A stretch of DNA of 64,000 nucleotides from Acidaminococcus fermentans (lineage in GTDB: Bacteria > Bacillota_I > Bacilli_A > RF39 > UBA660). Position 1 is the stretch's first letter; each line of letters opens with the position of its first letter. The notes beneath the pieces were generated by a model, which made no database searches, was not told where the DNA came from, and worked only from the letters and a program-made list of their open reading frames with translations. The stretch spans positions 1,810 to 65,809 of the forward strand of contig CAVKYO010000006.1 of NCBI GenBank assembly GCA_963660495.1, read 5' to 3'. Made by a program: the position numbers and the translations under genes. This document shows, piece after piece, positions 14,884 through 55,183 of this stretch.

Positions 14884-16284
14884 TTATTTAATATTAATAC
14901 TATTGTCATCGCCTAACAAGTTTTTAGCATCAGCTATTAATTTAGCTAAATCACCTTTACCAGCAACCTGTCCTTTTAAAGTACTAATCTCACTTTCCAA
15001 TTTTGAAATAGTATCATTAAGTCTACTATTTTCTTTTTCTAAAGCTCTAACTTTCTTTCTAAGAATTTCACCAGCTTCAACTAAAGTTCTATTTTCCTCA
15101 AAGGCTTTTCTCTTAAATTTCATTAAACTTTCAATTTGTTCTTCCTGACTAGAAATTAATTCTTTTTGTTCTTTATTTTGGCTTATTAAACTAGCCATAA
15201 CTTCAGCTGTATCTTCAATAATATTATCACTTAATCCGCGATTTTCATCATTATTCAAAGACATACCAGAAAATAGTGAATGATTATTAACAATATCTTC
15301 ATCTTCATCGTCTTCTTCTTTTTCTTCGCTTATATTTTCTTTTTCTACTTCACTAGCTTTATCTTTAAATAATGAAACTCTCTTAGCCGTAGCAGTAGGA
15401 ACTATAGGTGTAGGAATAATTATTTTTTCTTTTTCATCAATTGTTTCTTCTTTATCATCATTTTCTACAGTAAGTTCTTCTTTATCTTCAACTTCATTTT
15501 CATTATCTACAACAGTATCAGGAAACTCATCACTCTCAACTAAAGTATCTTTAAAACTAATTTCATGAAGCTCTTCTTCATTATTTTCTTCTTCTACCTT
15601 GCTCATAGCTTTATCTATTTCTTCTTTAGGAACAACTAAAGACTGAACATCTAATTCATCTTCAACATTCTTTTCTTCTTCAACAACTTTTTCCTCAATT
15701 TTTTCTTCTTTTTCTTTTTTTAATGAATAAGTAACAACATCAGTATCAGCAGTATTACCTGCTAAATATAAAATATCATTATTATATCCAATAAAACTAT
15801 ATAATTTATTATCTAACAAATTATTACCATCTAAATCATAAACACTAGCTTCTGAAAACTGATCATTAAAAAGGAATCTTCCATTAGGACCCATTTTCGC
15901 ATTAATCTTTTCTTTAATTGCGGCAGGTGTTGTAACTAATTTAGTAGCTGCTAAAGGATCTCTTCTCATACCAGCAGCCTCAATAACACTTTTAGTAACA
16001 GGCTTAGAAACCTCGACTAACATCGCCTCATCACCAACTGGTTTAACAGCTTTATTTTTAAATGGAACAATAATTTTTCCATCACTATCAATAACACCAA
16101 TATTAGATGCCAAAACCAATGGATCAATAGCTTCTACTAACGCAGTAGACGCAACAATACGACCTTTACCCAATTTTTCTCCATCCAAGAAATAATATTG
16201 TTTACCATCTTCTAAACATCCATATGTACAAACAATATCACTACGATCTTTATATTTAACTTGACCCTTTTGAACTTGCATCAT
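14884..16284 (-). CDS. Hypothetical acidic coiled-coil protein: globular N-domain, D/E-rich linker, C-terminal coiled coil
   Basis: The start was chosen at MMQVQKGQ, where a GGTGGTG RBS lies upstream. Residues ~200-380 are extremely D/E-rich. The C-terminus has heptad-like repeats (LESEISTLKGQ). Confidence 0.45.
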   Translation of the reverse strand: MMQVQKGQVKYKDRSDIVCTYGCLEDGKQYYFLDGEKLGKGRIVASTALVEAIDPLVLASNIGVIDSDGKIIVPFKNKAVKPVGDEAMLVEVSKPVTKSVIEAAGMRRDPLAATKLVTTPAAIKEKINAKMGPNGRFLFNDQFSEASVYDLDGNNLLDNKLYSFIGYNNDILYLAGNTADTDVVTYSLKKEKEEKIEEKVVEEEKNVEDELDVQSLVVPKEEIDKAMSKVEEENNEEELHEISFKDTLVESDEFPDTVVDNENEVEDKEELTVENDDKEETIDEKEKIIIPTPIVPTATAKRVSLFKDKASEVEKENISEEKEEDDEDEDIVNNHSLFSGMSLNNDENRGLSDNIIEDTAEVMASLISQNKEQKELISSQEEQIESLMKFKRKAFEENRTLVEAGEILRKKVRALEKENSRLNDTISKLESEISTLKGQVAGKGDLAKLIADAKNLLGDDNSINIK

Positions 16285-16429
16285 AATTACACCACCTATT
16301 TTATTCTCATCATAATAATAGCATAAATAAGCACTCAAAACAATACTTAAGAACAAAATATCACAAAATTTTAAAAGATGAATAATTGAATTTTAATCAA
16401 TTTTAATATAAAATATACTTGGTGATAAG

Positions 16430-19498: not shown

Positions 19499-19535
19499 AA
19501 GCGCTAATTAATTAGCACTTTTTTCTTTATATAAC
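19499..19535. terminator. Bidirectional terminator between the convergent prsA and membrane-protein genes
   Basis: AAAAAGCGCTAATTAATTAGCACTTTTTTCTTT: a palindromic stem flanked by A-run and T-run. Confidence 0.55.
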
Positions 19536-20932
19536 CTAAAATTTCTTTCTTTATTTTCATAAATAACTTCATACTTATCTGAATACTTTAAATAAGTATT
19601 AATAGGATAATTAGTAGAAACCAAGAAATAATCGAAACTATATTTTTCAATCAATTTAGGATAATCACCATTTAACTTAGAAATATCTAAATAATCTTTA
19701 AAATTATATTTAGAATATAAGTCTGCCCTACCATCTATAAATACTAAAATATCATTGTAAATAAGAACACCACCATAATCATACATATTATATAAACGTT
19801 CTGGCTTTTCTTCTTTTAAAACATTAATTACTTCATCATCTAAAAAGTAATCATCCGTTTCATAGTTTCGATAAAGATTACCAATAGAAAATAACACAAG
19901 TAAAATTGATATAAATCCAATGCTTAAATTTGTACCAGCATCTATTTTTCTTTTACCAATATAATTAAAGATAACAAAACTCATAATTATATATGTATAT
20001 GGCCAAAACCTAATACTCTTAAGTCCTAAAAACAAGGATATTCCAAATAAAACAAAATCCATTAACTCTATCTTCTTCTTACTGAAAATGAATACAAATA
20101 ATATCAAAACTGCCAAAATAAAATATGGATAATTACTTATATTATTAAGCGTAGTCGGTCTCCATTCAGCAATATTAGAAATCATTAAACTATCCAGTAT
20201 ATTTTGATATGGATATAAAAACATCTTAAAACCATGAATATTTATACATACAGCAAACATTGGCAATATACCAATAAATAAATATTTAAATAACTGTTTT
20301 TTACTAATTCTATTAGCTTCAATCTTTGAAAACTTAAATGAAAATAAACCTATTATCAAAAAGATAAAACAAAATAAATACCCTAAATTACTAGAACCAC
20401 CATGAACATTAGACCAAAGAACAGATAGTACTGGTAAAAAATATATTTTTCTAGAATCTTCATTCTTATATAAATCATATAAAAACCAGATAGTTAAAGC
20501 TAAGAAAATATAGCTAACTAAATGAGGTCTAATTTGTACATAAAAGACTAAAATAAAACCGAAAATAATCCAAACTAAACTAAACACAACATTTTTCAAA
20601 AACTTATCTTTATTATATACAAACAAAATTAATTCTAAAATACCAATACAAATAAAACTAAATATTACATAAAAACTCTTACCTAACAAATTACTCAAAT
20701 TATAAATAATTATTTCAAATAACCATTCATGTGACATCCAACTTTTCCCATACATATACCAAGAAAATACATCAGTATTTAAAATACCGTGTTTCATCAT
20801 ATATTCTCCAGCTTTTATATGCCATAAAAAATCAGTATCAATTTTAACACAACTAGCTAAAGCTAAAGTAAAAGCAAAAACTAAAATTCCAAATAAAATA
20901 ATAGTAAAATTTTTCTTAACAATCCTTTTCAT
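19508..20932 (-). CDS. Large polytopic membrane protein (GT-C-like glycosyltransferase fold suspected)
   Basis: 474 aa with more than 10 TM helices. The N-terminal loop carries FLWHIKAGEYM...SHEWLFEI. The assignment is weak. Confidence 0.35.
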   Translation of the reverse strand: MKRIVKKNFTIILFGILVFAFTLALASCVKIDTDFLWHIKAGEYMMKHGILNTDVFSWYMYGKSWMSHEWLFEIIIYNLSNLLGKSFYVIFSFICIGILELILFVYNKDKFLKNVVFSLVWIIFGFILVFYVQIRPHLVSYIFLALTIWFLYDLYKNEDSRKIYFLPVLSVLWSNVHGGSSNLGYLFCFIFLIIGLFSFKFSKIEANRISKKQLFKYLFIGILPMFAVCINIHGFKMFLYPYQNILDSLMISNIAEWRPTTLNNISNYPYFILAVLILFVFIFSKKKIELMDFVLFGISLFLGLKSIRFWPYTYIIMSFVIFNYIGKRKIDAGTNLSIGFISILLVLFSIGNLYRNYETDDYFLDDEVINVLKEEKPERLYNMYDYGGVLIYNDILVFIDGRADLYSKYNFKDYLDISKLNGDYPKLIEKYSFDYFLVSTNYPINTYLKYSDKYEVIYENKERNFRLYKEKSAN

Positions 20933-23069: not shown

Positions 23070-23339
23070 CTAAATAGTATAAAATTCCTCTAAAATGTCC
23101 ATATTGTAACTAGCTTTTTTTAAAAACTTACCATTATACTTAACATCAAGCTTATAGTACTTATTAACAAATTCATCATAATCAAAAACAAACAAATCTA
23201 AATAATTTTCAACAATATCATCAACAAAATCACAACCAGACTTTCTCAAAAACAATACAATTCTAGAAAAATTTTCTATATTAAGTTTATTAACAATACT
23301 TTTATCATATTTATTAATAATATCATTAATGTCTTGCAT
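23070..23339 (-). CDS. Hypothetical small acidic protein
   Basis: 89 aa. An AAGGAG lies 12 nt upstream. No motif recognised. Confidence 0.3.
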   Translation of the reverse strand: MQDINDIINKYDKSIVNKLNIENFSRIVLFLRKSGCDFVDDIVENYLDLFVFDYDEFVNKYYKLDVKYNGKFLKKASYNMDILEEFYTI

Positions 23340-24678
23340 AAAAAGAATCGACTCCTTTCATAGTTTTAACATCTATACCATAATCTTCTCTTAATCTTTT
23401 ACTAGTAGCACTTAAAATAGGATTTAATCGATGCCTATGATCACCAGAAGTATTCATAACTGTTAATGAATAATTATTATTTTTTAAATATTCCAAAAGT
23501 TTTCCTAAATAAATAGAACCTTTTCTTAAACAACCATTAGTAGCATACTCATCAATACCATATTTACTTAACAATGTCATACCAGCAGTAATATTATCCA
23601 GTGATAAAGAAAAAATACTAGGTTTCAATAATCCATCATATTTATGAGAATTCCAATATGGCAATGATAATATATCTTTCACAGCTTTATAACTACTATT
23701 CCAAATACTTGGTGTTAATAAATGACTAAATCTTTCATCATCCCATTCACTCATAGATAAAATATTCTTTATTTCCAAAGCATTACTTTTCCATAAACTA
23801 GAAGTTAGAAGATGGCTGAATTTCTCATTATTCCATTCTTCCATACGTAATGTATCAATAATATTACCGATATTACTATTCCAAATATTAGAAGTAAGTA
23901 AATTACTAAATCTTGGATTATCCCAGTCTTTTAAATTTAAAACGCCTTTAACTGTTTCAAAATTACTTTGCCAAATCGTAGGAGTAAGTAAATTACTAAA
24001 TCTTTCATCATCCCACTCCCTTAAACTTAAAATTTTATCTATCATCGAAGGATCTGAACAGCTCCAAATATTACTAGTAAGAAGCCTCTCAAACTTTGGA
24101 TCATCCCAATAATTAGAAGATAATACTTTTTTTACGACTTCTATATTACTATTCCAAATATTAGGAGTAAGTAAATTACTAAATCTTGGATTATCCCATT
24201 CTGATAATTCTAAAACACTCTGTACCATTTCAGGCGTACTATTCCATATAGTTGAAGTAAGTAATGAACTAAATTTTGGATCTCTTAATTCTGAAATATC
24301 TAAAATTCTTGAAACTTTATCACTAGTACTAGCCCAAATTGACGAAGTAAATACCTTATCAAATCTTGAATCATACCATTCCGGTCTTTTCAAAATATTC
24401 TTAATATTGTCTAAGTCAGCCTTCCAAATTGAAGAAGACAAAGCTCTACAAAATCTCTCATCAGTCCAAGCCGGTAACTGTAAAACGCCTTTTATTGTAT
24501 CTAAATCACAATACCAAATATTACTAGTAAGAAGTCCCTTAAATTTTGGATTATCCCATTCTTCCATCTCTAAAACAGTTTTTACAAATTCATAATCCCT
24601 ATTATACATATATTCTGTAGCAAGTACTCTTCTCCCAGCTAATAACTCATCTACTAATTTTCTCTCAATACTATTCAT
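23326..24678 (-). CDS. Tandem-repeat protein: ~11 copies of a ~36-aa repeat with core [KR]F-S-x-LLT-[SP]-x-IW-N-S ... L-x-L-x-EWD-[DN]-[PE], plus a unique C-terminal domain
   Basis: The repeats are obvious in the translation (RFSNLLTPNIWNSNIEVVKKVLSSNYWDDPKF and similar). The DNA also shows ~105-bp periodic repeats (ttggattatcccattc recurs). The start was chosen at MNSIERK, where an AGAGGGA RBS is present. Confidence 0.6.
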   Translation of the reverse strand: MNSIERKLVDELLAGRRVLATEYMYNRDYEFVKTVLEMEEWDNPKFKGLLTSNIWYCDLDTIKGVLQLPAWTDERFCRALSSSIWKADLDNIKNILKRPEWYDSRFDKVFTSSIWASTSDKVSRILDISELRDPKFSSLLTSTIWNSTPEMVQSVLELSEWDNPRFSNLLTPNIWNSNIEVVKKVLSSNYWDDPKFERLLTSNIWSCSDPSMIDKILSLREWDDERFSNLLTPTIWQSNFETVKGVLNLKDWDNPRFSNLLTSNIWNSNIGNIIDTLRMEEWNNEKFSHLLTSSLWKSNALEIKNILSMSEWDDERFSHLLTPSIWNSSYKAVKDILSLPYWNSHKYDGLLKPSIFSLSLDNITAGMTLLSKYGIDEYATNGCLRKGSIYLGKLLEYLKNNNYSLTVMNTSGDHRHRLNPILSATSKRLREDYGIDVKTMKGVDSFYARH

Positions 24679-24743
24679 TAAAAAGTCCCTCTCTAAAAAA
24701 ATTATATCATAAAAAGAAAAAAAGAGACAAAAGTCTCTCATAA

Positions 24744-25085
24744 TTATCTAAATTTACAACAAGAACCTGCTTGAACATTACTTACAGTGTTTTCCTCAGA
24801 GCAAGAATAAGCTGGTCTATAAGTATGTTTATATATATGATGATTTATAATTCTTGTATGTATTGGACAAACATGTGGTACTTCATGTACTATAGTTCTA
24901 TGAATACATTTTTCTTGAACTGCCTCATTTATCGGATTAGAATAACCGTCATTAGAAGCATACGGCATATTTTGATAACCAGACATATTAATATCAACAT
25001 TCATATCATTATCAACTACATTATTATTACCAACAACATTACTATCAAAATCGAAATTTGGCATATTCATATTTTGATCAAACAT
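24744..25085 (-). CDS. cotD: CotD-family inner spore coat protein
   Basis: The His/Pro/Thr-rich block HRTIVHEVPHVCPIHTRIINHHIYKHTYRP matches the CotD family signature. A GGAGG RBS is present. Confidence 0.5.
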   Translation of the reverse strand: MFDQNMNMPNFDFDSNVVGNNNVVDNDMNVDINMSGYQNMPYASNDGYSNPINEAVQEKCIHRTIVHEVPHVCPIHTRIINHHIYKHTYRPAYSCSEENTVSNVQAGSCCKFR

Positions 25086-25147: not shown

Positions 25148-26455
25148 TTAAAATGGCAACTTCATATTACCATTAGACATCTGTTTCATCATTTTTTTCA
25201 TTTGATCAAACTGTTGAAGTAATCTATTAACTTCTTGTACAGAAGTACCAGATCCTGAAGCAATTCTTGTTTTACGACTTGCCTTAATTATATCTGGATT
25301 TCTTCTTTCTTTAGGAGTCATAGATAAAACAATTGCTTCAATATGAGCCATTTGTTTTGGATCTATTTTTATATCATTAAGTCCCATCTTCTTAGCACCA
25401 GGAATTAATTTCAACAAATTTTCCAATGGTCCTAATTTTTTAATTTGTTTCATAGTAGATAAAAAGTCTTCCAAGTCAAACTTACCTTGTTGCATTCTTT
25501 TAGCTGTCTTTTCTGCTTCTTTTTCATCAATAGCTTCTGTTGCCTTTTCAACTAAAGAAACTATATCACCCATACCAAGAATTCTACCAGCAGCTCTTTC
25601 TGGATCAAAGAAATCAAGACCATCTAATTTTTCAGAAACACCAATAAACTTAATTGGAACATTAGTTAAATGTCTAACAGATAAAGCAACTCCACCTTTA
25701 GTATCACCATCTAATTTAGTAAGAACTACTCCAGATAAAGGTAAAGTATCATTAAAACCAGTAATAACATTAATAGCGTCCTGCCCCATCATAGAATCAA
25801 TTACTAAAAGTATTTCATCAGGTTTAACTGTATCTTTGATTCTAACGAGTTCATCCATTAATTCTTCATCAATATGTAATCTACCTGCAGTATCAATTAA
25901 TACATAATCATACCCATTTTCTTTAGCGTACTTAAAAGCATTACTAGCTATCTCAACAGGATCTTGTTTACCCTCTTCATAAACTTCAATATTCAATTGT
26001 TTACCAAGCTGCTTTAATTGATCTATTGCGGCTGGTCTATAAACATCACAAGCTACTAGTAAAGGTTTTTTAGAATGCTTCTTACGCAAAAAATTAGCTA
26101 ACTTAGCAATTGTCGTAGTTTTACCAGAACCTTGTAAACCAACAAGCATCAAACTAGCTGGATTGCCATTTAAATTTAAAGATTTACTTTCACCACCTAA
26201 TAATTCAACTAATTCATCTTTTACAATTTTAACAAATAAGTCACCAGGATTAATGCTACTAGCAACCTCTTCTCCTAATGCTTTTTCTTTAACAGAATTT
26301 GTAAACTCTTTAACAACCTTATAATTAACATCAGCTTCAAGTAAAGCTAATCTAATCTCTCTCATCATATCAGAAATATTATCTTCTGTTATTTTCCCAT
26401 AACCTTTTACCTTGTGTAAAACGTTTTGTAATCTATCTCCTAAACTTTCAAACAT
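25148..26455 (-). CDS. ffh: Signal recognition particle protein Ffh
   Basis: MFESLGDRLQNV start, SRP54 GTPase motifs GLQGSGKTTT and DTAGR, and a Met-rich M domain. Confidence 0.9.
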   Translation of the reverse strand: MFESLGDRLQNVLHKVKGYGKITEDNISDMMREIRLALLEADVNYKVVKEFTNSVKEKALGEEVASSINPGDLFVKIVKDELVELLGGESKSLNLNGNPASLMLVGLQGSGKTTTIAKLANFLRKKHSKKPLLVACDVYRPAAIDQLKQLGKQLNIEVYEEGKQDPVEIASNAFKYAKENGYDYVLIDTAGRLHIDEELMDELVRIKDTVKPDEILLVIDSMMGQDAINVITGFNDTLPLSGVVLTKLDGDTKGGVALSVRHLTNVPIKFIGVSEKLDGLDFFDPERAAGRILGMGDIVSLVEKATEAIDEKEAEKTAKRMQQGKFDLEDFLSTMKQIKKLGPLENLLKLIPGAKKMGLNDIKIDPKQMAHIEAIVLSMTPKERRNPDIIKASRKTRIASGSGTSVQEVNRLLQQFDQMKKMMKQMSNGNMKLPF

Positions 26456-26484
26456 AAATATCACCAATACTATTATAAATAATT

Positions 26485-27225
26485 TTAAAAGCTTTTGTCA
26501 AAAAAATAACTTACTTTTAACCCATTTTTATAAAATAGAAAAATTAATCCTATGAAAATAAACAAAATACTTACTAACTGATTAATCGAAAGCAAAGAAG
26601 ACATAGTATTAAATCTAAAATATTCAAGCAAGAACTTAGCTACACCAGATATTACAAAAGTTTGTCCAATAACAATTATTTTATCAACTTTTTTGTTCTT
26701 ACTTTTATTATTTATATATATAAAAATCGATATAAAGATGACTGCTTCCAATAATTGAACCGGAAAAAGTTCAACACCTTTAATAACAGAATTAGAATAA
26801 TTATATACAACACTAAAAGGTCCAGAATATTTCATTCCATAGCAACACCCAGCAAAAAAGCAGCCAAGTTTACCTATTCCATACATTAAAGGAATACTTG
26901 GAGAAAAAATATAAATCAAATCAAAAAATTTTTTCTTAAACTGTCTAGAATATATAAAAAGCATAAGTAAAATTCCAATAACAGCACCATAAGAAGATAG
27001 ACCAACTTTCCAAAAGTCAAACACTCCATCATATTTTTGATAATTACTTAAAAATGAAAAGTACTTAGCTCCATAAACTATACCTAAAAGAATATAAACA
27101 AATAATACTATACTCCCTTCTTTATTTAAATTCAAAGATTTACTATTTTTATATGCCACAAATAAACCAGCTGATACAGCAAACAATATAAATATCCCAT
27201 ATAATGGTATCATCGTATAAAACAT
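26485..27225 (-). CDS. Polytopic membrane protein with a degenerate Lgt-like motif
   Basis: GKLGCFFAGCCYG has the same spacing as the Lgt signature G-R-x-G-N-F-x-N-x-E-x-x-G. The catalytic N/N/E positions are replaced by C/A/C, so an Lgt function is doubtful. Confidence 0.35.
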   Translation of the reverse strand: MFYTMIPLYGIFILFAVSAGLFVAYKNSKSLNLNKEGSIVLFVYILLGIVYGAKYFSFLSNYQKYDGVFDFWKVGLSSYGAVIGILLMLFIYSRQFKKKFFDLIYIFSPSIPLMYGIGKLGCFFAGCCYGMKYSGPFSVVYNYSNSVIKGVELFPVQLLEAVIFISIFIYINNKSKNKKVDKIIVIGQTFVISGVAKFLLEYFRFNTMSSLLSINQLVSILFIFIGLIFLFYKNGLKVSYFFDKSF

Positions 27226-27258
27226 AATGCACTCCCTAATAAAATTTATTAATCAGTT

Positions 27259-27474
27259 TCACAAAATAAATATTTTATTTAAAAAAGAAAGACAAAATAA
27301 AAAGAAAAAGTTTTCAAGCTTAGCCCAAGAGACATAATACAAAAAAATCAAAGAGATAATAATTATAATATATCGTCTTTCTCTTTTCTTATATTCAGCC
27401 GTATTAACTATATTATCATTTTTTTCCTCGAAAAAACGTTTACCACATTTAGAACACACACTAGAACCAGGCAA
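27259..27474 (-). CDS. Hypothetical small protein (zinc-ribbon-like CxxC N-terminus plus TM)
   Basis: 71 aa: CSKCGKRFF followed by a hydrophobic tail. Weakly supported. Confidence 0.2.
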   Translation of the reverse strand: MPGSSVCSKCGKRFFEEKNDNIVNTAEYKKRERRYIIIIISLIFLYYVSWAKLENFFFLFCLSFLNKIFIL

Positions 27475-27630
27475 TATCTGTTCGCCATACCAAAAAAATT
27501 ATTCACCAAATCTTTTCTGTTAGATTTATTAAAAGAACTATCCATAATACCATCACCTACTATATCCAATATACATTAAAATTTTATAAATTTCAAACTT
27601 AAAAGAAAAAAGATAATGAAAGTCATATCT

Positions 27631-30171
27631 TTATTCAACAATATTAATTAATGGGACACCTCTATCAGTAGTAGGCACCATTGATGAATTATTATTAGTC
27701 ATATTCATATTTGTATTTTGAACAAATCCATTATTAGCTGGTCCAATCTGACTAAAACTATCATTCATATTTGAATTATTTCCAAGTCCAAAGCTACTAC
27801 CTAAATTATTATCAGTACTATCCTCAGTTGGAGGTACAATTCTTACAGTACCATAATCATTAACACGTTCCTCTAATTTAACAGTAGGACTAACTGTACT
27901 ATTATTAGAAACCATATCCAATGTACTAGGTACACTCAAAAATTGATTAGGATCAAAATTAGATTCATTATTATTTTGCTGATTAACCGCTGAAAAATCA
28001 GGCAAAGCTGACTGAACCATACTATTATCAAGCGTATATCCAGCAATAGTAGGAACTGCACTATTATTACTATTATCAATCATATTATCAGTCATATTAC
28101 TACTAGAAGTATTTAAATTCATCATATTATTTTGATTAAAATTACTATTTTCCTGATTCATACTTGGCTGCTCAACACTTGTTTCATTAGAAACACTAGG
28201 AACAGCCAAAGAATTATTACTTTGCTCTGTTGTCATAGAATTCTGTTCTAAAAATGGATTAACCGGTACATTATTACTTACAAATTGCATAGGTTGTGGA
28301 TTCATAGAAATCTCTTTAACTTCACTAACCGTATTATTAACAGGAGCACTTGTATTAATTGAAGCAGTACCATTACCATTCCAAATAGTAACAACATCAC
28401 AGTTACCAGACCAGGGTGCCGGATTTGGCATTTCCATTTTAACAATTAAAGGAATTCTAAAAGCCATACCAAAACCTAAACAAGTACCAGCTTGTAAAGT
28501 CTTTTGCTTTTCAACTATTTCATCACTAATATTTGGAACCATTTTTCTAATATAGTCAACATCAACAGGATGGTTCATTTTAAATATTAAGAAATTAGAA
28601 CATTGTGAAATAACAGTATCAGAAAGTTCCACCGGTCTTTGCGATATAAGTCCTAAAATAACAGCGTATTTTCTACCTTCCTTAGCAATTCTTTCGAATA
28701 TATTATATCCAATTAAGAATCTATCTGTATCATTTTGAATATATCTGTGAGCCTCTTCAACAACAATATGAAAAGGTATACTTGCTCTTTCTTTTAATCC
28801 TTTAGCAAACTCAAAAATTAATCTAGAGTAAATTTTTGTAATAACTTTAGCAAAATCATCATCAACGTCGTCTAAATTGATATTAACAATTTGATATTTA
28901 TTACCATTATTAATTAACATAGAAGACAAGAATGTCTCTAAAGAAACAAAATCAGGATAATCAAAGAACTTAGAATTAGGTCCTACTATTAAAGCATGTA
29001 ATCTTACTTTTATAGTAACCGCATCACCATAAGTATTCTCATTACGTAACCAACCTTCACTAATCAAAGTAAAATTAAGAGCTTTCTCCAAAGTATCTAA
29101 TGAATAATAAACACCCTTCTGTGGCTCATAATTGTCATAATCATTCTTAATAAATGAAGAAACATACTCTGTAAGTAAAACACTTTCAGAAAATTGTCCC
29201 TGACTATCAATTAAGAAACATTCCCTAAACTTTCTAGTATAGCCAACACCTTGTACAACAGCTTCTAAATTAAATTCTGGTGTAGAACAACTAGCCAAAA
29301 TTGAAAATATTTCATTTCTCTTGTTAGGAGATGTTTCATTAGTATATAAAATTGTCATAATAGCCTTAGCGATTAAATGGTTCTTATAATTATTGGCATC
29401 CATATCAGTTTGTGAAAAAACTAAAGCTAATTTTAACATTCTTTCAATAATTGGTAATTGTGAATGACTAGTAGCTTGTAATAACAAAGCTAAGTCACTT
29501 TCATTAAGTAAAAATACTGGTATTCTAAGTTTCTCGCCTTTACCATCAACCTCATTAGTACTATAAAAACGATAATGATAATTAGAGTTAATACTATTGA
29601 TATCTTTAAATGCGTTATAGTACTCACCAGATGAATCAAATAAAACTATATTTGCTTTGTACGGAAATAACCTCTGATCATGAAACATGTTCTGAAATAA
29701 TCTTGAAATACCGCAACTCTTACCTGAACCAGAATTACCAAATATAGCAAAATGATTACTAAAGAAATTATTAACATCTAAGAAGACAGGATAGTCATTG
29801 TAAAAAGGACTAACTCCAAGACGTAGATATCCTTGAGCATCAGTACCACAGATCATGGGAATTTCATTTTGTTCAATAACACGAATCTTAGCATCTAAAG
29901 ATGGTTTACGTATAACACCACCTAATAATTTACCATTAACAATTTCACCTAAAAATCTAACTCTAACAAGATTTCCATCTAAGTCATCTACCTCACCAAG
30001 TATTTTTTTCATATTATCCTCAAAAATAATATGTAAATTCATTAGATTCATAGTTACGTTATAACCATCAGCCAACTTAACATTAGCAGAATGATCACTA
30101 ATATAAACAATTCGTTCAAACATATTAGTCAACTCCCATCTTATTCCTTTTACCCTATATAAATTATACAA
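27631..30171 (-). CDS. HerA/DUF87-family (FtsK-HerA superfamily) ATPase with a ~250-aa C-terminal N/S/Q/M-rich low-complexity tail
   Basis: Walker A FGNSGSGKS. HerA-type Walker B HIVVEEAHRY, the DEAH-like variant. The LISQRPVELSDTVISQCSNFLIFKMN motif is typical of HerA/DUF87. The N-terminal region is HAS-barrel-like. The last ~250 aa have almost no charged residues and are rich in N/S/Q/M. Confidence 0.7.
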   Translation of the reverse strand: MYNLYRVKGIRWELTNMFERIVYISDHSANVKLADGYNVTMNLMNLHIIFEDNMKKILGEVDDLDGNLVRVRFLGEIVNGKLLGGVIRKPSLDAKIRVIEQNEIPMICGTDAQGYLRLGVSPFYNDYPVFLDVNNFFSNHFAIFGNSGSGKSCGISRLFQNMFHDQRLFPYKANIVLFDSSGEYYNAFKDINSINSNYHYRFYSTNEVDGKGEKLRIPVFLLNESDLALLLQATSHSQLPIIERMLKLALVFSQTDMDANNYKNHLIAKAIMTILYTNETSPNKRNEIFSILASCSTPEFNLEAVVQGVGYTRKFRECFLIDSQGQFSESVLLTEYVSSFIKNDYDNYEPQKGVYYSLDTLEKALNFTLISEGWLRNENTYGDAVTIKVRLHALIVGPNSKFFDYPDFVSLETFLSSMLINNGNKYQIVNINLDDVDDDFAKVITKIYSRLIFEFAKGLKERASIPFHIVVEEAHRYIQNDTDRFLIGYNIFERIAKEGRKYAVILGLISQRPVELSDTVISQCSNFLIFKMNHPVDVDYIRKMVPNISDEIVEKQKTLQAGTCLGFGMAFRIPLIVKMEMPNPAPWSGNCDVVTIWNGNGTASINTSAPVNNTVSEVKEISMNPQPMQFVSNNVPVNPFLEQNSMTTEQSNNSLAVPSVSNETSVEQPSMNQENSNFNQNNMMNLNTSSSNMTDNMIDNSNNSAVPTIAGYTLDNSMVQSALPDFSAVNQQNNNESNFDPNQFLSVPSTLDMVSNNSTVSPTVKLEERVNDYGTVRIVPPTEDSTDNNLGSSFGLGNNSNMNDSFSQIGPANNGFVQNTNMNMTNNNSSMVPTTDRGVPLINIVE

Positions 30172-30189
30172 ATAAATTATTAAATTTAC

Positions 30190-30218
30190 AAGAAAAAAAA
30201 GAAGAATAACTCTTCTTA
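30190..30218 (-). terminator. Rho-independent terminator downstream of ylxM, upstream of the HerA-like gene
   Basis: Minus-strand AAGAAGAGTTATTCTTCTT hairpin followed by TTTTTTTT. Confidence 0.55.
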
Positions 30219-30219
30219 A

Positions 30220-30513
30220 TTAAAATAACTCTAAAATTTCATCACGTAGTTTTAGATCATTTATTTTTTTAACTAACTCTATAGCCTTTTTAGACTTTTT
30301 CACCAGTTCTAAATTCTCTTCATAATATTTTAATTTTTCCTCAACAATTTTTAATTGCTTATGAATAGCATTTCTACTAACATTATAGTTCTCAGCCATT
30401 TCTCCAAGACTTAAATTATTAAAATAATAGTTTTCAAAATAATCTCTTTGTTTATCAGTTAATAAAGAGCCATAAAAATCATACAATTCATTTAAATAAA
30501 TAACTTCTTCCAT
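30220..30513 (-). CDS. ylxM: UPF0122 protein YlxM (putative SRP-operon HTH protein)
   Basis: 97 aa. LTDKQRDYFENYYFNNLSLGEMAE matches the sigma-70 region-4-like HTH of YlxM. It lies immediately downstream of ftsY. Confidence 0.8.
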   Translation of the reverse strand: MEEVIYLNELYDFYGSLLTDKQRDYFENYYFNNLSLGEMAENYNVSRNAIHKQLKIVEEKLKYYEENLELVKKSKKAIELVKKINDLKLRDEILELF

Positions 30514-30521
30514 GTCATCAC

Positions 30522-31583
30522 CTACATTAAATCCTTGAATAATCCATAAATATACTTCTCAATATCAAATACCTGTAAGTCTTCTTTTCTTTCTCCAAGA
30601 CCAATAAATTTAACTGGTATTCCAACAGTTTCTTTTATTGCTAAAACAATTCCACCCTTTGCGGTACCATCAAGTTTAGTAAGTACTATTCCTGTAATAT
30701 TAGTAATTTCCTTAAATGCATTAGCTTGACTAATCCCGTTTTGACCAGTAGTAGCGTCAATTACAAGCAAAGTTTCACTAGCACCAGATGGAACTAAATT
30801 AGAAATTACTTTATTCATTTTCTCTAATTCTTTCATTAAATTAACTTTATTTTGAAGTCTACCAGCAGTATCAATAAGAACAACATCAAAATCCTCATCT
30901 ATTGCTTTTTCTACACCATCGTAAACAACACTAGCTGGATCGGCTCCTTCATCTTTTCCATAAAAAGAAACTCCAACTTTATCAGCCCATTCCTTAAGCT
31001 GTTCAACAGCACCAGCTCTAAAAGTATCAGCACCAACAAGTAATACTTTATGTCCTTCATTTTTTAATTTCCATCCAACTTTAGCGATACTAGTCGTTTT
31101 ACCAACTCCATTAACACCAACAAACAATATAACAGTAGGGCCAGATTCATTATAATTAATTTTATTTACTAAGACACTATCATTAACATAAATAATAAAT
31201 AACTCATCAACTATAATTTCTTTAAGTAATTCCGGATTTTCTATCTTTTCACTATATACACGTTTCTTCAACCTATCTATAAAATCCATTACTGTATTAA
31301 CACCAATATCAGCCATTATAAGTATTTCTTCTAACTCATCAAAATACTCATCATCTACATTTTTATGTCTTTTAGTAAGTTCAGCCAGTTTTGAAACAAA
31401 TCCCTCCCGAGACTTAGTCAAACCTTTTTCATATACTTTTACTTCCTTTTTTACTTCATCCTTTACATCATCATTAACTACTTCATTAAATGAATCAGAA
31501 ACTAAATTATCTTCTTTTTCAACTGAAATCTCATTATTTTTAAACATATTTTTAATTTTATTAAATAATCCCATTAAAATCAC
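30522..31583 (-). CDS. ftsY: Signal recognition particle receptor FtsY
   Basis: SRP GTPase motifs VGVNGVGKTTS, DTAGR and TKLDG. 353 aa. Confidence 0.9.
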   Translation of the reverse strand: MILMGLFNKIKNMFKNNEISVEKEDNLVSDSFNEVVNDDVKDEVKKEVKVYEKGLTKSREGFVSKLAELTKRHKNVDDEYFDELEEILIMADIGVNTVMDFIDRLKKRVYSEKIENPELLKEIIVDELFIIYVNDSVLVNKINYNESGPTVILFVGVNGVGKTTSIAKVGWKLKNEGHKVLLVGADTFRAGAVEQLKEWADKVGVSFYGKDEGADPASVVYDGVEKAIDEDFDVVLIDTAGRLQNKVNLMKELEKMNKVISNLVPSGASETLLVIDATTGQNGISQANAFKEITNITGIVLTKLDGTAKGGIVLAIKETVGIPVKFIGLGERKEDLQVFDIEKYIYGLFKDLM

Positions 31584-39257: not shown

Positions 39258-39622
39258 AATATAAATAAGCCATGTTCTGTTCTTAGTTACCTAAGCGACA
39301 AACATTTATCTACCAGCTATTAACTAGTCTCTAATCAGATTCAATTCTCTTCATAGAACTCCCCTACCAATTAATTTGGGTTTCTCGCTCGTTGGGTTTA
39401 CCGCGTTTCACTTTCTTTGTTTCCAAAAAAATTCGTCACTGTGGCACTTTATGGTTTTGTATCATATCAACGACTTAGATACAAATTCCGCCGTTAGCAA
39501 AGCTACCCTAGGTTATTTATTCCCTAGGAACGATCACTACAGTCATCGCAGACTGTGCGAGCATGGACTTTCCTCAAGGACCTCAAGAGTCCCAGCGTTT
39601 GTCTATATATTAATTGTTTTCC
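39258..39622 (-). ncRNA. rnpB: RNase P RNA, type B (Bacillus-type)
   Basis: The reverse complement contains GAGGAAAGTCCATGCTCGCAC (P4), AAAGTGCCACAGTGACGAA, GGAACGCGGTAAACCC...GAGCGAGAAACCCAAAT...GGTAGGGGA and ACAGAACATGGCTTA. These are near-identical to conserved B. subtilis RNase P RNA blocks. This region has a locally elevated GC. The ends given are approximate. Confidence 0.85.
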
Positions 39623-49507: not shown

Positions 49508-49825
49508 ATGATAATAGGAAATAATTTTAATCAAGATCCCAGAAAAAATTTTGAAAACTCAAACTTTAATAGAAATCAAAAACAACAAGGAGTAACACCA
49601 GAAAATAAATCATTAAAAAATCCTAACATAAATAATAATTTTTCTAACAACATGTTAACTAAAGATATTTCAACATTTAAATATACAAATATTGAAAACA
49701 ATAATGAAGTATATGATAAATCTTTAGCCATTCTACACAACAGATTAAAAAATAACACTATAACATTAGAAGAATTCAATAAACAATGTCAAGCCCTAGC
49801 AAACAAAAGAAATAAAGGACAATAA
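49508..49825 (+). CDS. Hypothetical Asn-rich small protein
   Basis: 105 aa, N-rich, with a GAGGT RBS. No motif. Confidence 0.3.
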   Translation: MIIGNNFNQDPRKNFENSNFNRNQKQQGVTPENKSLKNPNINNNFSNNMLTKDISTFKYTNIENNNEVYDKSLAILHNRLKNNTITLEEFNKQCQALANKRNKGQ

Positions 49826-53596: not shown

Positions 53597-55183
53597 GTGT
53601 ATAATAGATATACGATAGACAATACAATTTTTAAAATAGCCATTTATATAAGACTATCTCGTGAAGATGGTGACGATATGGAATCAGAAAGTGTCACTAA
53701 TCAAAGAAGTTTATTAACTAGTTATTTAAAAGCGCAAGAATTAGTTGCAGTTGATATTTATGTTGATGATGGTTATACAGGAACAAATTTTGAGCGTCCA
53801 GAGTTTAAAAGAATGTTAAATGACATTGAAAACGGAAAAATTAATATGGTTATAACAAAAGACTTATCAAGATTAGGTCGTGACCATGTTATGACAGGTT
53901 TCTATGTTGAAACCTTTTTTCCCAAAAATGATGTCAGATATATTGCTATAAATGACGATATAGATACTTTTTTTGAAACCATTGGCTCAGATATGATGCC
54001 ATTTAAATTAAGTATGAATGATATGTATGCAAAAGACATTTCCAAAAAAGTTCGTTCAAACTTACTACAAATGAAAAAAGACGGAAAGTTTTGTGGAAGT
54101 GCACCATCTTATGGTTATATGAGAGATCCAAATGATAAACACAAATTAATACCAGATCCAAATACTGCTCCTATTGTAAAAAGAATATTTGATTTATATG
54201 TCGCTGGTTATGGTAGTTCACAAATTGCCGAAATATTAACAAGAGAAGAATTACCAACACCTATTATGTATAAATACTCTGGTGCTAAATTAAATAACTT
54301 TGACCATCCTGAAATATGGAAACACACATCTGTTAGTAATATCATTAAAAATAGAGTTTATATTGGCGATTTAATCCAACACAGAGTTCAAAAAGTAAAC
54401 TATAAAATTAAGAAAATGAAAAATGTTCCAGAAAGTGAATGGTGTATTAAGGAAAATGCACACGAGCCAGTTGTTGATAGAAGAACATTTGAAATAGCAC
54501 AATCTATTAAAGATTCGCGGGATACTTATAATTCTGAACGAAGAAATATTAATTATGTATTATCTGATTTAGTTTATTGTAAAGATTGTGGTGCTAGAAT
54601 GAGTATTAGCTATGATAAAAAAAGAGATAGAGTTACAATGAATTGTAATAACTATCGTAAGTTTAGTAAGTATGATATATGTTTTTCTCATTATATTAAC
54701 TATACTAAATTAGAAAAAACTGTCTATAACAAATTAAGCACTATGGCTAGATGGTATATTAATGATAAAGATGAATTTGAAAGTATCATCAAAAATCAAT
54801 ATGTTGATCCTAAACAAGATAAACTTAAAAAGATTGATGAACTTAATTTAAAGATAGCTGAATTAAAAAGAAAACAAGACTCTTTATATGATGATAAATT
54901 TAATAATATTATAAATGTAGAAACTTATCAAAGATTATTTAAAACTACTGAAGAAGATATTAAAACTGCAAACGAAAAATTAGAAAAATTAAAAGAAGAA
55001 ATTTCCAGTATAAACGAAAATTCCTCTTGTTATGTTGAATATTTAGATATAATTAAAAACTTTTTAGATATGAAAAATCCAACAAGAGAAATTATGAATA
55101 GATTAATTGATAAGATATATGTAACGAAAGATAAAAAACTAGAAATTCATTATAGAATTAAAAAAAGTGAAGTATTAGTATAA
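53597..55183 (+). CDS. Large serine recombinase (SpoIVCA/CisA-like), GTG start
   Basis: Resolvase catalytic domain IAIYIRLSREDGDD with the Ser nucleophile in RLS. A recombinase domain follows, then a zinc ribbon (CKDCGARMS...CNNYRK) and a C-terminal coiled coil. 528 aa. AAAGGAG lies 7 nt upstream of the GTG. Confidence 0.85.
   Translation: MYNRYTIDNTIFKIAIYIRLSREDGDDMESESVTNQRSLLTSYLKAQELVAVDIYVDDGYTGTNFERPEFKRMLNDIENGKINMVITKDLSRLGRDHVMTGFYVETFFPKNDVRYIAINDDIDTFFETIGSDMMPFKLSMNDMYAKDISKKVRSNLLQMKKDGKFCGSAPSYGYMRDPNDKHKLIPDPNTAPIVKRIFDLYVAGYGSSQIAEILTREELPTPIMYKYSGAKLNNFDHPEIWKHTSVSNIIKNRVYIGDLIQHRVQKVNYKIKKMKNVPESEWCIKENAHEPVVDRRTFEIAQSIKDSRDTYNSERRNINYVLSDLVYCKDCGARMSISYDKKRDRVTMNCNNYRKFSKYDICFSHYINYTKLEKTVYNKLSTMARWYINDKDEFESIIKNQYVDPKQDKLKKIDELNLKIAELKRKQDSLYDDKFNNIINVETYQRLFKTTEEDIKTANEKLEKLKEEISSINENSSCYVEYLDIIKNFLDMKNPTREIMNRLIDKIYVTKDKKLEIHYRIKKSEVLV

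Follow-up and report, generated by a model that had tools for sequence, protein, structure and literature searches.

A stand-alone HerA-clade ATPase with a predicted disordered tail at the SRP locus of uncultured gut Bacilli

Why does a gene for a HerA-type ATPase with a long low-complexity tail interrupt the ftsY-ylxM-ffh order of an SRP locus, and what would its product do there? We addressed this question for herA, a minus-strand gene in a 64,000-nucleotide stretch of DNA (hereafter, the window) from a genome with a GC content of 27%. The original prediction described a frame of 846 amino acids. This frame is present (27631..30171, minus strand) and is open upstream as far as a TTG at 30171, but the likely start is an internal ATG, which would give a product of 830 residues. 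The Met encoded by this ATG was the alignment start for all 80 related loci, GGAG/GAGGG-type ribosome-binding sites were found upstream of herA in all relatives, and a public protein, P0001, has 830 aa and is 99% identical to the window product.

27631..30123, minus strand: herA-like coding sequence, 830 aa plus stop, likely start ATG at 30123
30133..30137, minus strand: predicted ribosome-binding site GGGAG, 9 nt upstream of that ATG

The gene encodes a HerA/DUF87 ATPase with a low-complexity C-terminal tail of ~246 residues. In the tail region, no in-frame stops were observed, compared with 8-69 in the other five frames, and its DNA showed GC periodicity of the coding type. The same tail architecture recurs in about 70 species, each assembled independently. 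The tail is genuine coding sequence; frameshift or misassembly, raised beforehand as a possible source of it, is contradicted by the reading frame and the GC periodicity.

The ATPase core was then compared with known families. The product matched Pfam DUF87 (PF01935) with 70.5 bits against a cutoff of 23.2 (2.9e-19) and the best PADLOC HerA model (PDLC04102) with 367.5 bits (2.9e-110). All PDB sequence matches were HerA proteins (9c1m, 7e-44; 4d2i, 1e-27), as were the best 50 Foldseek matches against the PDB, in which the TM-score normalised to the target reached 0.76. The AF2 model of residues 1-584 had a pLDDT of about 85-90, and we are confident that these residues adopt the HerA fold predicted by the model. 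The core domain set, consisting of the HAS barrel, RecA-like core, and helical bundle, was shown to be complete.

29839..30123, minus strand: N-terminal HAS-type beta-barrel, about residues 1-95 (AF2 strands E2-E82, pLDDT about 85)
29716..29739, minus strand: Walker A GNSGSGKS, residues 129-136; G129, G132, G134, K135, and S136 invariant in 51 sequences
28915..29502, minus strand: helical-bundle insertion in the RecA-like domain, about residues 208-403 (AF2 helices H208-H403)
28747..28773, minus strand: Walker B FHIVVEEAH, residues 451-459; H452, I453, E456, E457, A458, and H459 invariant
28561..28650, minus strand: nearly invariant ATPase-core block LISQRPVELSDTVISQCSNFLIFKMNHPVD (LISQRP...SQCSNF...HP.D), residues 492-521
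28381..28431, minus strand: end of the folded core, MPNPAPWSGNCDVVTIW, residues 565-581; P566, P568, P570, and W581 invariant

Both the Walker A (GxxGxGKS) and the Walker B motif (hhhhEE; HIVVEE, 452-457) are intact, and R460, which adjoins Walker B, is also invariant in the 51 family members. Thus, the HerA-clade assignment made from the sequence, the three ATPase motifs on which it relied, and the HAS-barrel-like N-terminal region were all confirmed, the last as a beta-barrel in the AF2 model that aligned to the N-domains of HerA proteins in the Foldseek matches. The block at residues 492-521 aligned to the same block of the solved anti-phage HerA 9c1m. The alignment with 4d2i extended up to chain residue 479 and covered its brace (D461-E467); from these alignment ranges, residues 565-581 probably correspond to the HerA C-terminal brace region. 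By homology with the solved HerA proteins, the herA product would form a hexameric ring for ATP-driven dsDNA translocation. A VirB4/TraC or coupling-protein ATPase with conjugative neighbours, the outcome named in advance as contrary to HerA, was also considered and rejected: the TrwB_AAD_bind match (16.6 bits) was below its cutoff of 20.5, and the neighbours in the window are housekeeping genes, with no conjugative genes near herA.

The remainder of the protein is the tail.

27634..28371, minus strand: acidic, K/R-depleted, N/S-rich tail, residues 585-830 (pLDDT 24-37, no secondary structure in the AF2 model)

As anticipated, composition analysis showed that it is rich in N (20.2%), S (14.2%), T (8.1%), M (5.7%), and Q (5.3%), the window background being 6.7% N and 9.7% K. 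It had also been described as almost devoid of charged residues, which holds for K+R (2.0%) but not for D+E (9.3%); the net charge is about -18. Among 72 related tails, the median K+R content was 2.8%, and the net charge was negative in all. K is the most frequent residue of the genome, yet K and R were excluded from 72/72 tails, implying selection on charge. A tail-only AF2 model, whose input alignment comprised island-sharing relatives only, had a pTM of 0.13, and the two AF2 runs both predicted that the tail is intrinsically disordered.

Identity to the nearest species is 99% in the core but 64-69%, with numerous indels, in the tail, the last 12 residues of which nevertheless reach 75-100%. 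Across relatives, all of about 70 species in the tail-bearing clade keep the tail, whereas relatives at 57-62% core identity have none. As these tail-less relatives demonstrate, core function does not require the tail, and the distribution suggests that about 250 residues were gained at the C-terminus solely in this sub-lineage. Disordered extensions unrelated to this tail are found at the N- or C-terminus of other members of the family. Within the tail, five or six short conserved peptides are separated by hypervariable N/S-rich spacers.

28246..28269, minus strand: tail island 1, VPVNPFLE, residues 619-626, kept in the 12 nearest species, with a local rise in pLDDT
27991..28056, minus strand: tail island 3, VPTIAGYTLDNSMVQSALPDFS, residues 690-711; P, D, and F of ALPDF invariant in 27 proteins
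27871..27945, minus strand: tail island 4, QFLSVPSTLDMVSNNSTVSPTVKLE, residues 727-751, conserved among related tails
27820..27858, minus strand: tail island 5, DYGTVRIVPPTED, residues 756-768, conserved among related tails
27634..27678, minus strand: putative docking peptide at the C-terminus, VPTTDRGVPLINIVE, residues 816-830 (tail-only AF2 model, pLDDT 73-80)

The terminal peptide has the consensus TDxGxPL(I/V)x(I/L)V, and 27 proteins share its P, T, D, G, P, and L without exception. Its core motif, P-L-[IV]-x-[ILF]-[VTSA], occurred within the last 30 residues of 39/71 tails, with 9 matches upstream in 12,648 tail residues, giving a roughly 25-fold C-terminal enrichment per residue. In other subclades, the terminal motif is repeated within the tails. 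Tail motifs were found in no other ORFs in roughly 1 Mb of sequence scanned. The conserved traits of the tail are near-absent K/R, net negative charge, hypervariable spacers, and short islands.

We next considered whether the tail is largely non-functional, that is, a low-complexity expansion by replication slippage at a permissive C-terminus in an AT-rich genome. Because most of its length evolves at a relaxed rate, much of the tail may be selectively neutral: its length ranges from 80 to 422 aa among relatives, large indels separate species with 99%-identical cores, and its dN/dS of 0.31-0.38 climbs to 0.5-0.85 at slightly greater divergence. The tail-less relatives, which work without one, and the unrelated extensions elsewhere in the family fit the same explanation. 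Nevertheless, no species of the clade has lost the tail, the islands and the terminal peptide retain invariant residues, and the exclusion of K and R runs against the commonest residue of the genome. The tail DNA contains one short tandem repeat only, showing no sign of ongoing simple slippage. We therefore consider it unlikely that the tail is largely non-functional.

Alternatively, the N/Q/S-rich sequence may be prion-like or phase-separating and drive the ATPase into aggregates or condensates, as the original prediction proposed. The classic prion-like criterion is at least 30 Q/N in 80 consecutive residues. The window tail, with 25.5% N+Q, contains at most 28 Q/N in any 80 residues, and at least 30 were reached by 4/72 related tails, across which Q+N varies from 5.8% to 30%. 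This variation and the few tails that reach the criterion indicate that N/Q richness reflects local composition in a genome of 27% GC, where unconstrained coding sequence is expected to be N-rich anyway, and is not the selected property of the tail. Moreover, conservation lies in discrete peptides rather than overall composition, all tails are net-acidic, and many have long D/E runs, which disfavours amyloid; relatives without any tail are known as well. On the other hand, the scattering of Phe-containing islands in polar spacers resembles a stickers-and-spacers layout, and repeats of the docking motif in some tails would provide multivalency. A precedent is also known from the low-GC Firmicute C. 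botulinum, whose ring ATPase Rho carries an N-rich prion-like insertion in its N-terminal domain with demonstrated amyloid propensity (PMC4703818, PMC6400439). The likeness extends to a hexameric RecA-type nucleic-acid motor with an N-rich low-complexity region; however, the region of Rho is internal, whereas the herA tail is C-terminal and acidic, and its N/Q richness is unconserved. With such precedents (PMC4703818), a low-complexity extension is not as unusual for a bacterial ATPase as had been assumed. Overall, prion-like behaviour is doubtful, and no evidence was found to support the surface or coat association that had been suggested along with it, or a role in sporulation.

The surroundings of herA were analyzed in the window and in related genomes.

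30522..31583, minus strand: ftsY, SRP receptor (translation; named by sequence and paralogy to ffh; syntenic in all loci)
30220..30513, minus strand: ylxM, upstream neighbour (Pfam UPF0122, 1.1e-27; NCBIfam YlxM, 96.2 bits against a cutoff of 80)
27259..27474, minus strand: degraded remnant of a zinc-ribbon membrane-protein gene, split over two frames
26485..27225, minus strand: lgt paralogue, inserted locally between herA and ffh (Pfam LGT, 4.6e-35; otherwise in L003 alone)
25148..26467, minus strand: ffh, downstream SRP GTPase (translation; 72-97% identical in related loci where found)

As predicted, herA interrupts ftsY-ylxM-ffh in the window and in related loci. It does lie between ylxM and ffh, but the lgt paralogue and the zinc-ribbon remnant lie there too; this insertion is common to the window and L003 only, and L003 holds intact 139/140-aa versions of the zinc-ribbon membrane protein. 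Other neighbours of herA are pgsA, recA, murE, rny, RNase J, rpoZ, and recX. Relatives were sought in a species-representative genome set, in which 144 were detected, and 80 species loci were fetched. The order ftsY-ylxM-herA-ffh was observed in nearly all 80 loci, with herA single-copy at the SRP locus and syntenic across an order-level clade of uncultured gut Bacilli. The family tree comprised ylxM-linked, yqeH-linked, and sepF-divIVA-linked clades, and gene position tracked the tree. In the sister clades, herA is located after yqeH or before sepF-divIVA(-ftsK), with no SRP genes near, indicating that the SRP-locus position, conserved as it is within the clade, is lineage-specific. The place of herA in the SRP operon is historical and not functional, and the gene is vertically inherited with a lineage-specific locus. 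Among the nearest species, core dN/dS was 0.012-0.014, compared with 0.031-0.044 for ffh, 0.05-0.11 for ftsY, and 0.07-0.10 for ylxM, so that purifying selection on the core is stronger than on ffh. The conserved order in the 80 loci and the very low core dN/dS therefore indicate a housekeeping gene rather than a defence gene, and the role, as judged by homology, would be chromosome maintenance rather than phage defence.

Bacterial HerA is currently known as the motor of SIR2-HerA/DUF4297-HerA anti-phage pairs or as a NurA-coupled resection helicase. An anti-phage HerA whose effector (SIR2, DUF4297, or other) is encoded elsewhere or recruited by the tail was accordingly weighed. The closest solved and profile-defined relatives are indeed defence HerAs: those of DUF4297-HerA and SIR2-HerA (Nezha) (PDB 9c1m, 8xau, 8zit, 8wld, 8sub, and 8j4u) share the three-part fold and the ATPase blocks and gave the best sequence and structure matches. 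The best PADLOC HerA model scored 367 bits, and a recruiting tail could in principle substitute for genetic linkage. Yet these proteins are about 20-30% identical to the herA product, real plasmid-borne SIR2-HerA pairs just 28-31%, and the NCBIfam anti-phage cutoffs were missed more than fivefold (NF042944, 158 against 850; NF042943, 142 against 800). The solved anti-phage HerAs also lack a 250-aa disordered tail. In Listeria pLIS28, SIR2 directly precedes the DUF87 gene, but no such pair exists at the window herA, which has neither an adjacent effector nor a defence island. As originally stated, no NurA or defence partner is adjacent; a NurA, SIR2, or DUF4297 partner adjoining herA was found neither among the window ORFs scanned nor in the 80 related loci. 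A partner would have no room, because the spacers to ylxM and ffh are about 97 and 65 nt and are at most 110 nt on either side in most of the 80 loci; NurA or another partner may be encoded elsewhere in these genomes. Instead of a patchy, island-like distribution with rapid turnover, we observed a fixed place among housekeeping genes in 80 species, a position that tracks the tree, and extreme conservation of the core, whose dN/dS is below that of ffh and atypically low for a defence gene. A search for phage-borne relatives found none. A defence role is hence very unlikely. The HerA-NurA end-resection motor (archaeal and Deinococcus-type; PDB 4d2i and 9x1m) resembles the window protein in its fold and brace-containing C-terminal core, and both are encoded by chromosomal housekeeping genes. 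It differs in that no nurA, mre11, or rad50 was found beside herA in the 80 loci, and the NCBIfam repair models scored 86 bits against a cutoff of 970 (NF040819, helicase_HerA) and 105 against 800 (NF040937).

Transcription signals were identified on both sides of herA.

30192..30217, minus strand: terminator-like hairpin AAGAAGA-gttat-TCTTCTT and T-run that immediately follow the ylxM stop (read from the sequence)
30163..30191, minus strand: predicted sigma-70-like promoter TTGTAA-N17-TATAAT upstream of herA (10/12 positions match)
27601..27630, minus strand: terminator-like hairpin and T-run that immediately follow the herA stop (read from the sequence)

A T-run is found at the equivalent place after ylxM in 42/50 tail-bearing loci; a simple hairpin scan missed the post-ylxM hairpin because its stem has just 2 G-C pairs. 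A promoter-like site occupies the same place in 47/50 tail-bearing loci, with TATAAT kept in most and the spacer sequence variable, and a hairpin plus T-run follows herA in 60/60 short herA-ffh spacers. These consensus matches, supported by their conservation, suggest that herA is its own transcription unit in the tail-bearing clade. That the herA product works with the SRP machinery (FtsY, YlxM, and Ffh) is extremely unlikely, given that these terminator-like and promoter-like elements insulate the gene on both sides in that clade, that sister-clade herA lies away from SRP genes, and that no HerA is known to act on proteins or RNA, even though the ylxM/ffh position is kept across 80 species and herA begins 11-18 nt after ylxM in tail-less relatives, suggesting co-translation with the HTH-like YlxM.

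We thus regard the stand-alone HerA-clade P-loop ATPase as somewhat probably a housekeeping motor with a flexible recruiting tail. The HerA ring would serve as a solo dsDNA-translocase motor in chromosome maintenance. Each ring would bear six long flexible tethers arranged as beads on a string, in which the N/S-rich spacers could expand and contract freely between short peptides, which are probably beta-strand-forming. The peptides may dock to a partner or to further HerA rings and would thereby recruit the motor, concentrate it, or regulate it; in addition, the polyanionic tail may be a competitor of DNA for the basic pore. In known HerA proteins, a C-terminal hook or brace docks onto the neighbouring protomer (PMC11291478, PMC5715905, PMC11514289), and in anti-phage HerA the flexible C-terminal element docks in this manner onto the neighbouring subunit (PMC11291478). 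Similarly, the folded NTPase core of FtsZ is followed by a disordered linker, which is poorly conserved and varies in length, and by a short, well-conserved C-terminal docking peptide, CT17 (PMC9586301). The herA tail, too, is predicted to be disordered, is hypervariable in both length and sequence, and ends in a conserved peptide; the likeness is of architecture only, as the families are unrelated, and the herA tail differs in its several internal conserved peptides and strong K/R depletion.

The locus represents a third setting for bacterial HerA, stand-alone, vertically inherited, in housekeeping loci, and, among the nearest species, under tighter constraint than the essential SRP protein Ffh, so that HerA matches should not all be annotated as defence. 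The gene spans a large, medically relevant, uncultured gut-bacterial group with reduced genomes, and its constraint points to a core DNA transaction not yet described in these organisms. The tail would be a natural example of a bacterial disordered region made of neutral spacers and selected short linear motifs, for which the tail-less sister lineages offer a ready comparative test. More tentatively, and with rather little confidence, the protein may be a hitherto unrecognised, near-essential solo DNA pump of Mollicutes-related gut Bacilli (RF39-like, Acholeplasma-like, and allied) that segregates chromosomes, clears DNA from the division site, or takes part in replication-coupled repair, with the six multivalent acidic tails of the RF39-like ring docking to a division or replisome hub or cross-linking rings. 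If true, a role once proposed for archaeal HerA would extend to bacteria. Hints in this direction include the gene order herA-sepF-divIVA-ftsK of a sister clade and the tighter constraint on the core than on ffh.

In FtsK, too, a long low-complexity linker connects the motor with a targeting module. FtsK/SpoIIIE belongs to the same ATPase superfamily as HerA, and herA of sister clade C adjoins sepF-divIVA-ftsK. However, the herA product has no alpha, gamma, or membrane domain, and its match to Pfam FtsK_SpoIIIE is faint. A full-length ftsK coexists with herA in L091, indicating that herA is not simply an FtsK substitute there.

The start of herA was placed at an ATG at 30123, where GGGAG lies 9 nt upstream in the DNA read directly, whereas the TTG at 30171 falls within a promoter-like element. 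P0001, a public protein 99% identical to window HerA, has 830 aa, and the related loci all align starting at the Met of ATG 30123. For these reasons, we take window HerA to be a protein of 830 aa and number its residues accordingly; the reading frame of the original prediction (27631..30171, minus strand, 846 aa) is present with its start corrected. Its placement between ylxM and ffh was confirmed, an lgt paralogue and a zinc-ribbon remnant lying there as well in the window. The features of the locus and of the core are as follows.

Features of the herA locus and of the HerA core
30522-31583, ftsY, upstream of herA
30220-30513, ylxM, upstream of herA (Pfam UPF0122, 1.1e-27; NCBIfam YlxM over cutoff)
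30163-30191, TTGTAA-N17-TATAAT-type promoter-like site upstream of herA
27631-30123, minus strand, herA
27259-27474, degraded zinc-ribbon membrane-protein remnant, between herA and ffh
26485-27225, lgt paralogue, between herA and ffh
25148-26467, ffh, downstream of herA
Residues 129-136, Walker A, GNSGSGKS
Residues 452-459, Walker B, HIVVEE(AH)
Residues 492-521, LISQRP...SQCSNF...HP.D block

The insertion between herA and ffh (window 26485-27474) was observed only in the window and in the related locus L003 (10747-12380). The L003 version holds, besides an lgt paralogue, a membrane protein with a zinc ribbon (139 aa) and a second zinc-ribbon protein paralogous to it (140 aa); the first zinc-ribbon gene of the window is degraded, its sequence being split over two frames at a T-run, with a 71-aa ORF left.

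Profile search of window HerA matched Pfam DUF87 at 70.5 bits (cutoff, 23.2), and the top PADLOC HerA model scored 367 bits across residues 110-602. The PDB sequence matches were all HerA or close kin (9c1m, 7e-44; 8xau, 8ziq, 8wiv and 8j4u; Sulfolobus 4d2i, 1e-27). The AlphaFold2 model, built from a 51-sequence alignment, reached a pLDDT of about 85-90 over residues 1-584 and showed an N-terminal beta-barrel, a RecA-like core and a helical insertion. The best 50 Foldseek matches against the PDB were HerA chains only (DUF4297-HerA, SIR2-HerA, HerA-NurA and the Sulfolobus hexamer). A VirB4/TraC identity, to which the profile search could have moved the core, was rejected, as TrwB_AAD_bind stayed under threshold and no conjugative genes are nearby. 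The Walker A, Walker B and SQRP-type sequences quoted in the original prediction were all located in the protein; with its HerA fold and with the catalytic motifs intact, it bears out the earlier HerA assignment.

The last 246-247 residues form a tail of 20.2% N, 14.2% S, 8.1% T, 5.7% M and 5.3% Q (window background, 6.7% N and 9.7% K), in agreement with the N/S/Q/M/T-richness described before. The description "almost devoid of charged residues" holds for basic residues (K+R, 2.0%) but not for acidic ones (D+E, 9.3%), and the net charge is about -18. No stop interrupts the reading frame across the tail, compared with 8-69 in the other five frames; codon-position GC retains the coding pattern, and the core-plus-tail architecture was found in about 70 independently assembled species. 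A frameshift or misassembly origin, the doubt raised with the original prediction, is thereby excluded. DNA tandem repeats as a driving force were also rejected, just one 12-nt repeat of 2.4 copies being present. In the full-length AlphaFold2 model, residues 585-815 showed a pLDDT of 24-37 and no secondary structure; a tail-only model, aligned solely with island-sharing relatives, gave a pTM of 0.13 without secondary structure, which speaks against a folded domain concealed in I3-I5, three of the short conserved peptides (islands) of the tail. The tail is thus predicted to be disordered. The only other stretch of the 64-kb window with at least 50% N/S/Q/T over 60 residues is a 105-aa ORF (49508-49825, plus strand) with an N/Q/K-rich low-complexity N-terminal half, which is rich in lysine, unlike the herA tail.

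The alignment of the 12 nearest species resolved the tail into islands parted by spacers with indels of 0-150 aa.

Conserved peptides of the tail in the alignment of the 12 nearest species
PVNPFLE, island
NMTDxM, island
PTIxGYSLDNxxVQSALPDF, island
QFLxVPSTLDMVxNxSxVxPTVxLE, island
DYGxVRIxPPxEN, island
(V/I)PxTDxGxPLIN(I/L)V, terminus

PDF and P-TD-G-PL are among the elements invariant over 27 proteins. The tail-only model gave a pLDDT of 50-62 over the islands and 73-80 on the last 16 residues, a rise typical of peptides folding upon binding. A candidate docking peptide of the herA tail is TDRGVPLINIVE. In 39 of 71 tails, the terminal core motif P-L-[IV]-x-[ILF]-[VTSA] falls among the final 30 residues, compared with 9 matches in the 12,648 residues upstream in the tails. 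Most of the remaining tails end in (V/L)xL(T/S/N)LDD-(acidic run)-...DF(S/A/E/D), and the tail of locus L069 (APLIDLTLDDDDDDDDNSFD) combines both forms; in other subclades, a PL(I/V)x(I/L)T(D/E) peptide is present in two or three copies per tail. Docking peptides of this kind were found in no other protein of the window or of any fetched locus.

In species whose cores match that of the window at 99% identity, tail identity falls to 64-69% and indels are numerous, although the last 12 residues are 75-100% identical; the tail dN/dS was 0.31-0.38. Across 72 tails, length ranged over 80-422 aa and Q+N over 5.8-30%, the net charge was negative in all 72, and the median K+R was 2.8% compared with 10.3% in the cores. 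Neutral junk sequence would be a plausible account of the spacers, but it explains neither the islands and terminal peptide nor the charge rule, and as an explanation of the tail we regard it as unlikely. The prion-like or condensate-forming tail of the original prediction found no support and is, in our estimate, quite unlikely: its defining composition is not conserved, and 30 Q/N per 80 residues were reached by 4 of 72 tails, although the window tail comes to 28. The accompanying ideas of a coat or surface association and of a role in sporulation were likewise unsupported.

We describe the tail as acidic, composed of variable spacers and conserved short peptides. From solved homologues, window HerA would form a hexameric ring that translocates on dsDNA by ATP hydrolysis; from its architecture, the tail could be a flexible multivalent tether whose peptides dock on a partner or on other HerA rings. 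HerA proteins grip the neighbouring protomer by a short "brace" or "hook", which a flexible loop carries at the C-terminus (PMC11291478, PMC5715905, PMC11514289). By alignment position, the equivalent of this element lies inside the conserved core (MPNPAPW...W, residues 565-581), so the tail peptides are additional to it. The closest architectural analogue of the tail is the disordered linker of FtsZ with its CT17 peptide (PMC9586301). The alternating-hydrophobic, acid-flanked tail motif looks like a beta-strand-addition peptide. Tail endings with an acidic run plus DF recall the C-terminal tails of SSB and T7 gp4, which offers a lead. The exclusion of K/R and the negative charge in every tail suggest that the tail must not stick to DNA, and the chain may be in competition with DNA for the basic pore.

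Conservation was followed through a species-representative genome collection, in which 144 stretches encode a relative and the best 80 of the 144 were fetched. The exhaustive search separated three tiers: tail-bearing proteins (at least 70% identity), collinear proteins of ~590 aa (41-45%) and a general HerA pool (36% or less); a profile search from the middle tier led to a large protein family. The genomes closest to the window, which we suspect to be of the order RF39, are those of uncultured gut "Bacilli", "Tenericutes", "Mycoplasma sp. CAG:877" and Candidatus Faecimonas MAGs. GC of the window is about 27%, and the organism is walled and has division genes of the Firmicute kind (class A PBP, MurE, EzrA). 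An RNase P RNA of class B (39261-39611, minus strand; 281.9 bits) agrees with a lineage of the Firmicute/Mollicute type.

The order ftsY-ylxM-herA-ffh(-cotD-like) is kept in nearly all of the 80 loci, down to 57% core identity, but not in sister clades, so that the earlier question of a conserved position receives a divided answer. There, herA lies in a yqeG-yqeH-herA context (proteins P0320, P0273 and P0329), in herA-sepF-divIVA (P0128 and P0291) or herA-sepF-divIVA-ftsK (P0379), or in an era/recO-side locus (P0381). Each placement is one clade in the neighbour-joining tree; the simplest reading is therefore one ancestral, vertically inherited herA that settled in a different housekeeping neighbourhood per lineage, and its position at the SRP locus is lineage-specific. 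Linkage to sepF-divIVA(-ftsK) hints at division or segregation and counts as one evolutionary event; none of sepF, divIVA and ftsK is in the 64-kb window. A general replacement of FtsK by HerA was rejected, because ftsK is present in full in the related locus L091, where it lies three genes downstream of herA.

The tail is likewise conserved in part: present in about 70 species, it is absent at 57-62% core identity, where the proteins stop at residues 584-588. Other family clades carry unrelated disordered extensions, one of them N-terminal (P0126). In the tail-less loci L075 (9764-10723), L077 (9764-10693) and L080 (9740-11059), a membrane-protein gene directly follows herA with a 5-nt gap or overlap. 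In L075 and L077, the protein is single-pass and has a basic cytoplasmic N-terminus of about 60 aa; in L080, it is polytopic, with a long acidic disordered tail. These proteins could be alternative partners or anchors for tail-less HerA; they gave no tblastn match in the window, and an origin of the tail as a fused downstream gene was rejected. Tail-less relatives also have an ORF of ~81-88 aa between ftsY and ylxM, with hydrophobic stretches that possibly span the membrane (L074, 7452-7706; L075, 7442-7690; L077, 7447-7692; L078, 7431-7697), which is missing in the window.

As originally remarked, herA has no partner gene beside it, and there is no room for one in most loci, because only short spacers flank herA. 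The wider window genes are pgsA, recA, murE, rny, RNase J, rpoZ and recX. When the window was compared with the four species nearest to it (dS of about 0.4-0.5), the HerA core gave a dN/dS of 0.012-0.014; the other values were 0.031-0.044 (ffh), 0.05-0.11 (ftsY), 0.07-0.10 (ylxM) and 0.13-0.17 (cotD-like gene). As the HerA core is more constrained than Ffh, the role of a dispensable immune module is very unlikely. The NCBIfam anti-phage and repair HerA equivalogs missed their cutoffs by large margins, and true SIR2-HerA pairs (e.g. Listeria pLIS28) are 28-31% identical to window HerA. A mobile-element origin was rejected, since plasmid matches were at most 31% identical and came from SIR2-HerA pairs, and phage matches were irrelevant. 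A defence HerA acting with an unlinked effector is disfavoured by synteny and core constraint, and we consider it highly improbable. Window HerA is a solo, housekeeping protein under strong constraint, a vertically inherited variant on the known HerA theme with a lineage-specific linker-and-peptide tail. This challenges the current view of bacterial HerA as a protein of defence or of NurA-coupled repair, and the family, with and without tail, is a tractable comparative system. Our literature search found no paper describing this HerA family or its locus and none joining HerA with ylxM; the papers retrieved for HerA together with RF39, with sepF plus divIVA, or with Acholeplasma/Mollicutes/DUF87 were all irrelevant. 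About 25 kb from herA, a large serine recombinase (53597-55183, plus strand; Resolvase, Recombinase and Zn_ribbon_recom domains) points to the integration of a mobile element, which appears unrelated to herA.

The ylxM-herA spacer of the tail-bearing clade has a median of about 97 nt, with a T-run in 42 of 50 loci and a TTGTAA-N17-TATAAT-type site in 47 of 50, TATAAT being mostly kept while the spacer sequence varies; in tail-less relatives, herA begins 11-18 nt past ylxM. The herA-ffh spacer of about 65 nt carries a hairpin and T-run in 60 of 60 cases; beyond these come a TATAAT-like box and AGGTGAT, where the ribosome would bind for ffh. Both terminator-like hairpins flanking herA were recognised by direct sequence reading and conservation, as a simple terminator scan missed their stems of fewer than 3 G-C pairs. 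Judged from these conserved consensus matches, herA appears to be a monocistronic unit, insulated from its SRP neighbours upstream and downstream. With this insulation and the other loci in sister clades, an SRP-related function of HerA is extremely improbable. A perfect TTGACA-N18-TATAAT lies at 26472-26501 (minus strand), at the lgt 3′ end and about 5 nt ahead of the annotated ffh start, and relatives without the lgt insertion have an equivalent promoter-like box ahead of ffh; ffh thus seems to retain a promoter of its own, irrespective of where herA or lgt sits.

Firmicutes usually carry rpsP directly downstream of ffh. In the window, this position is taken by a 113-aa protein (24744-25085, minus strand) with an N/M/D-rich N-terminal and a His/Cys-rich C-terminal half, whose Pfam match to spore-coat CotD is weak (0.0042, under cutoff); the gene is conserved past ffh in most related loci. 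A 471-aa protein (23326-24741, minus strand) contains about 12 tandem repeats of ~37 aa of the W(D/N)(D/N)P(K/R)F..LLT(S/P).IW type, with no significant Pfam match and a 90-nt DNA period of 3.6 copies. Two minus-strand ORFs of 490 aa (14884-16356) and 474 aa (19508-20932) had no Pfam match at E<=1e-5, and the latter overlaps the end of recX in the same orientation.
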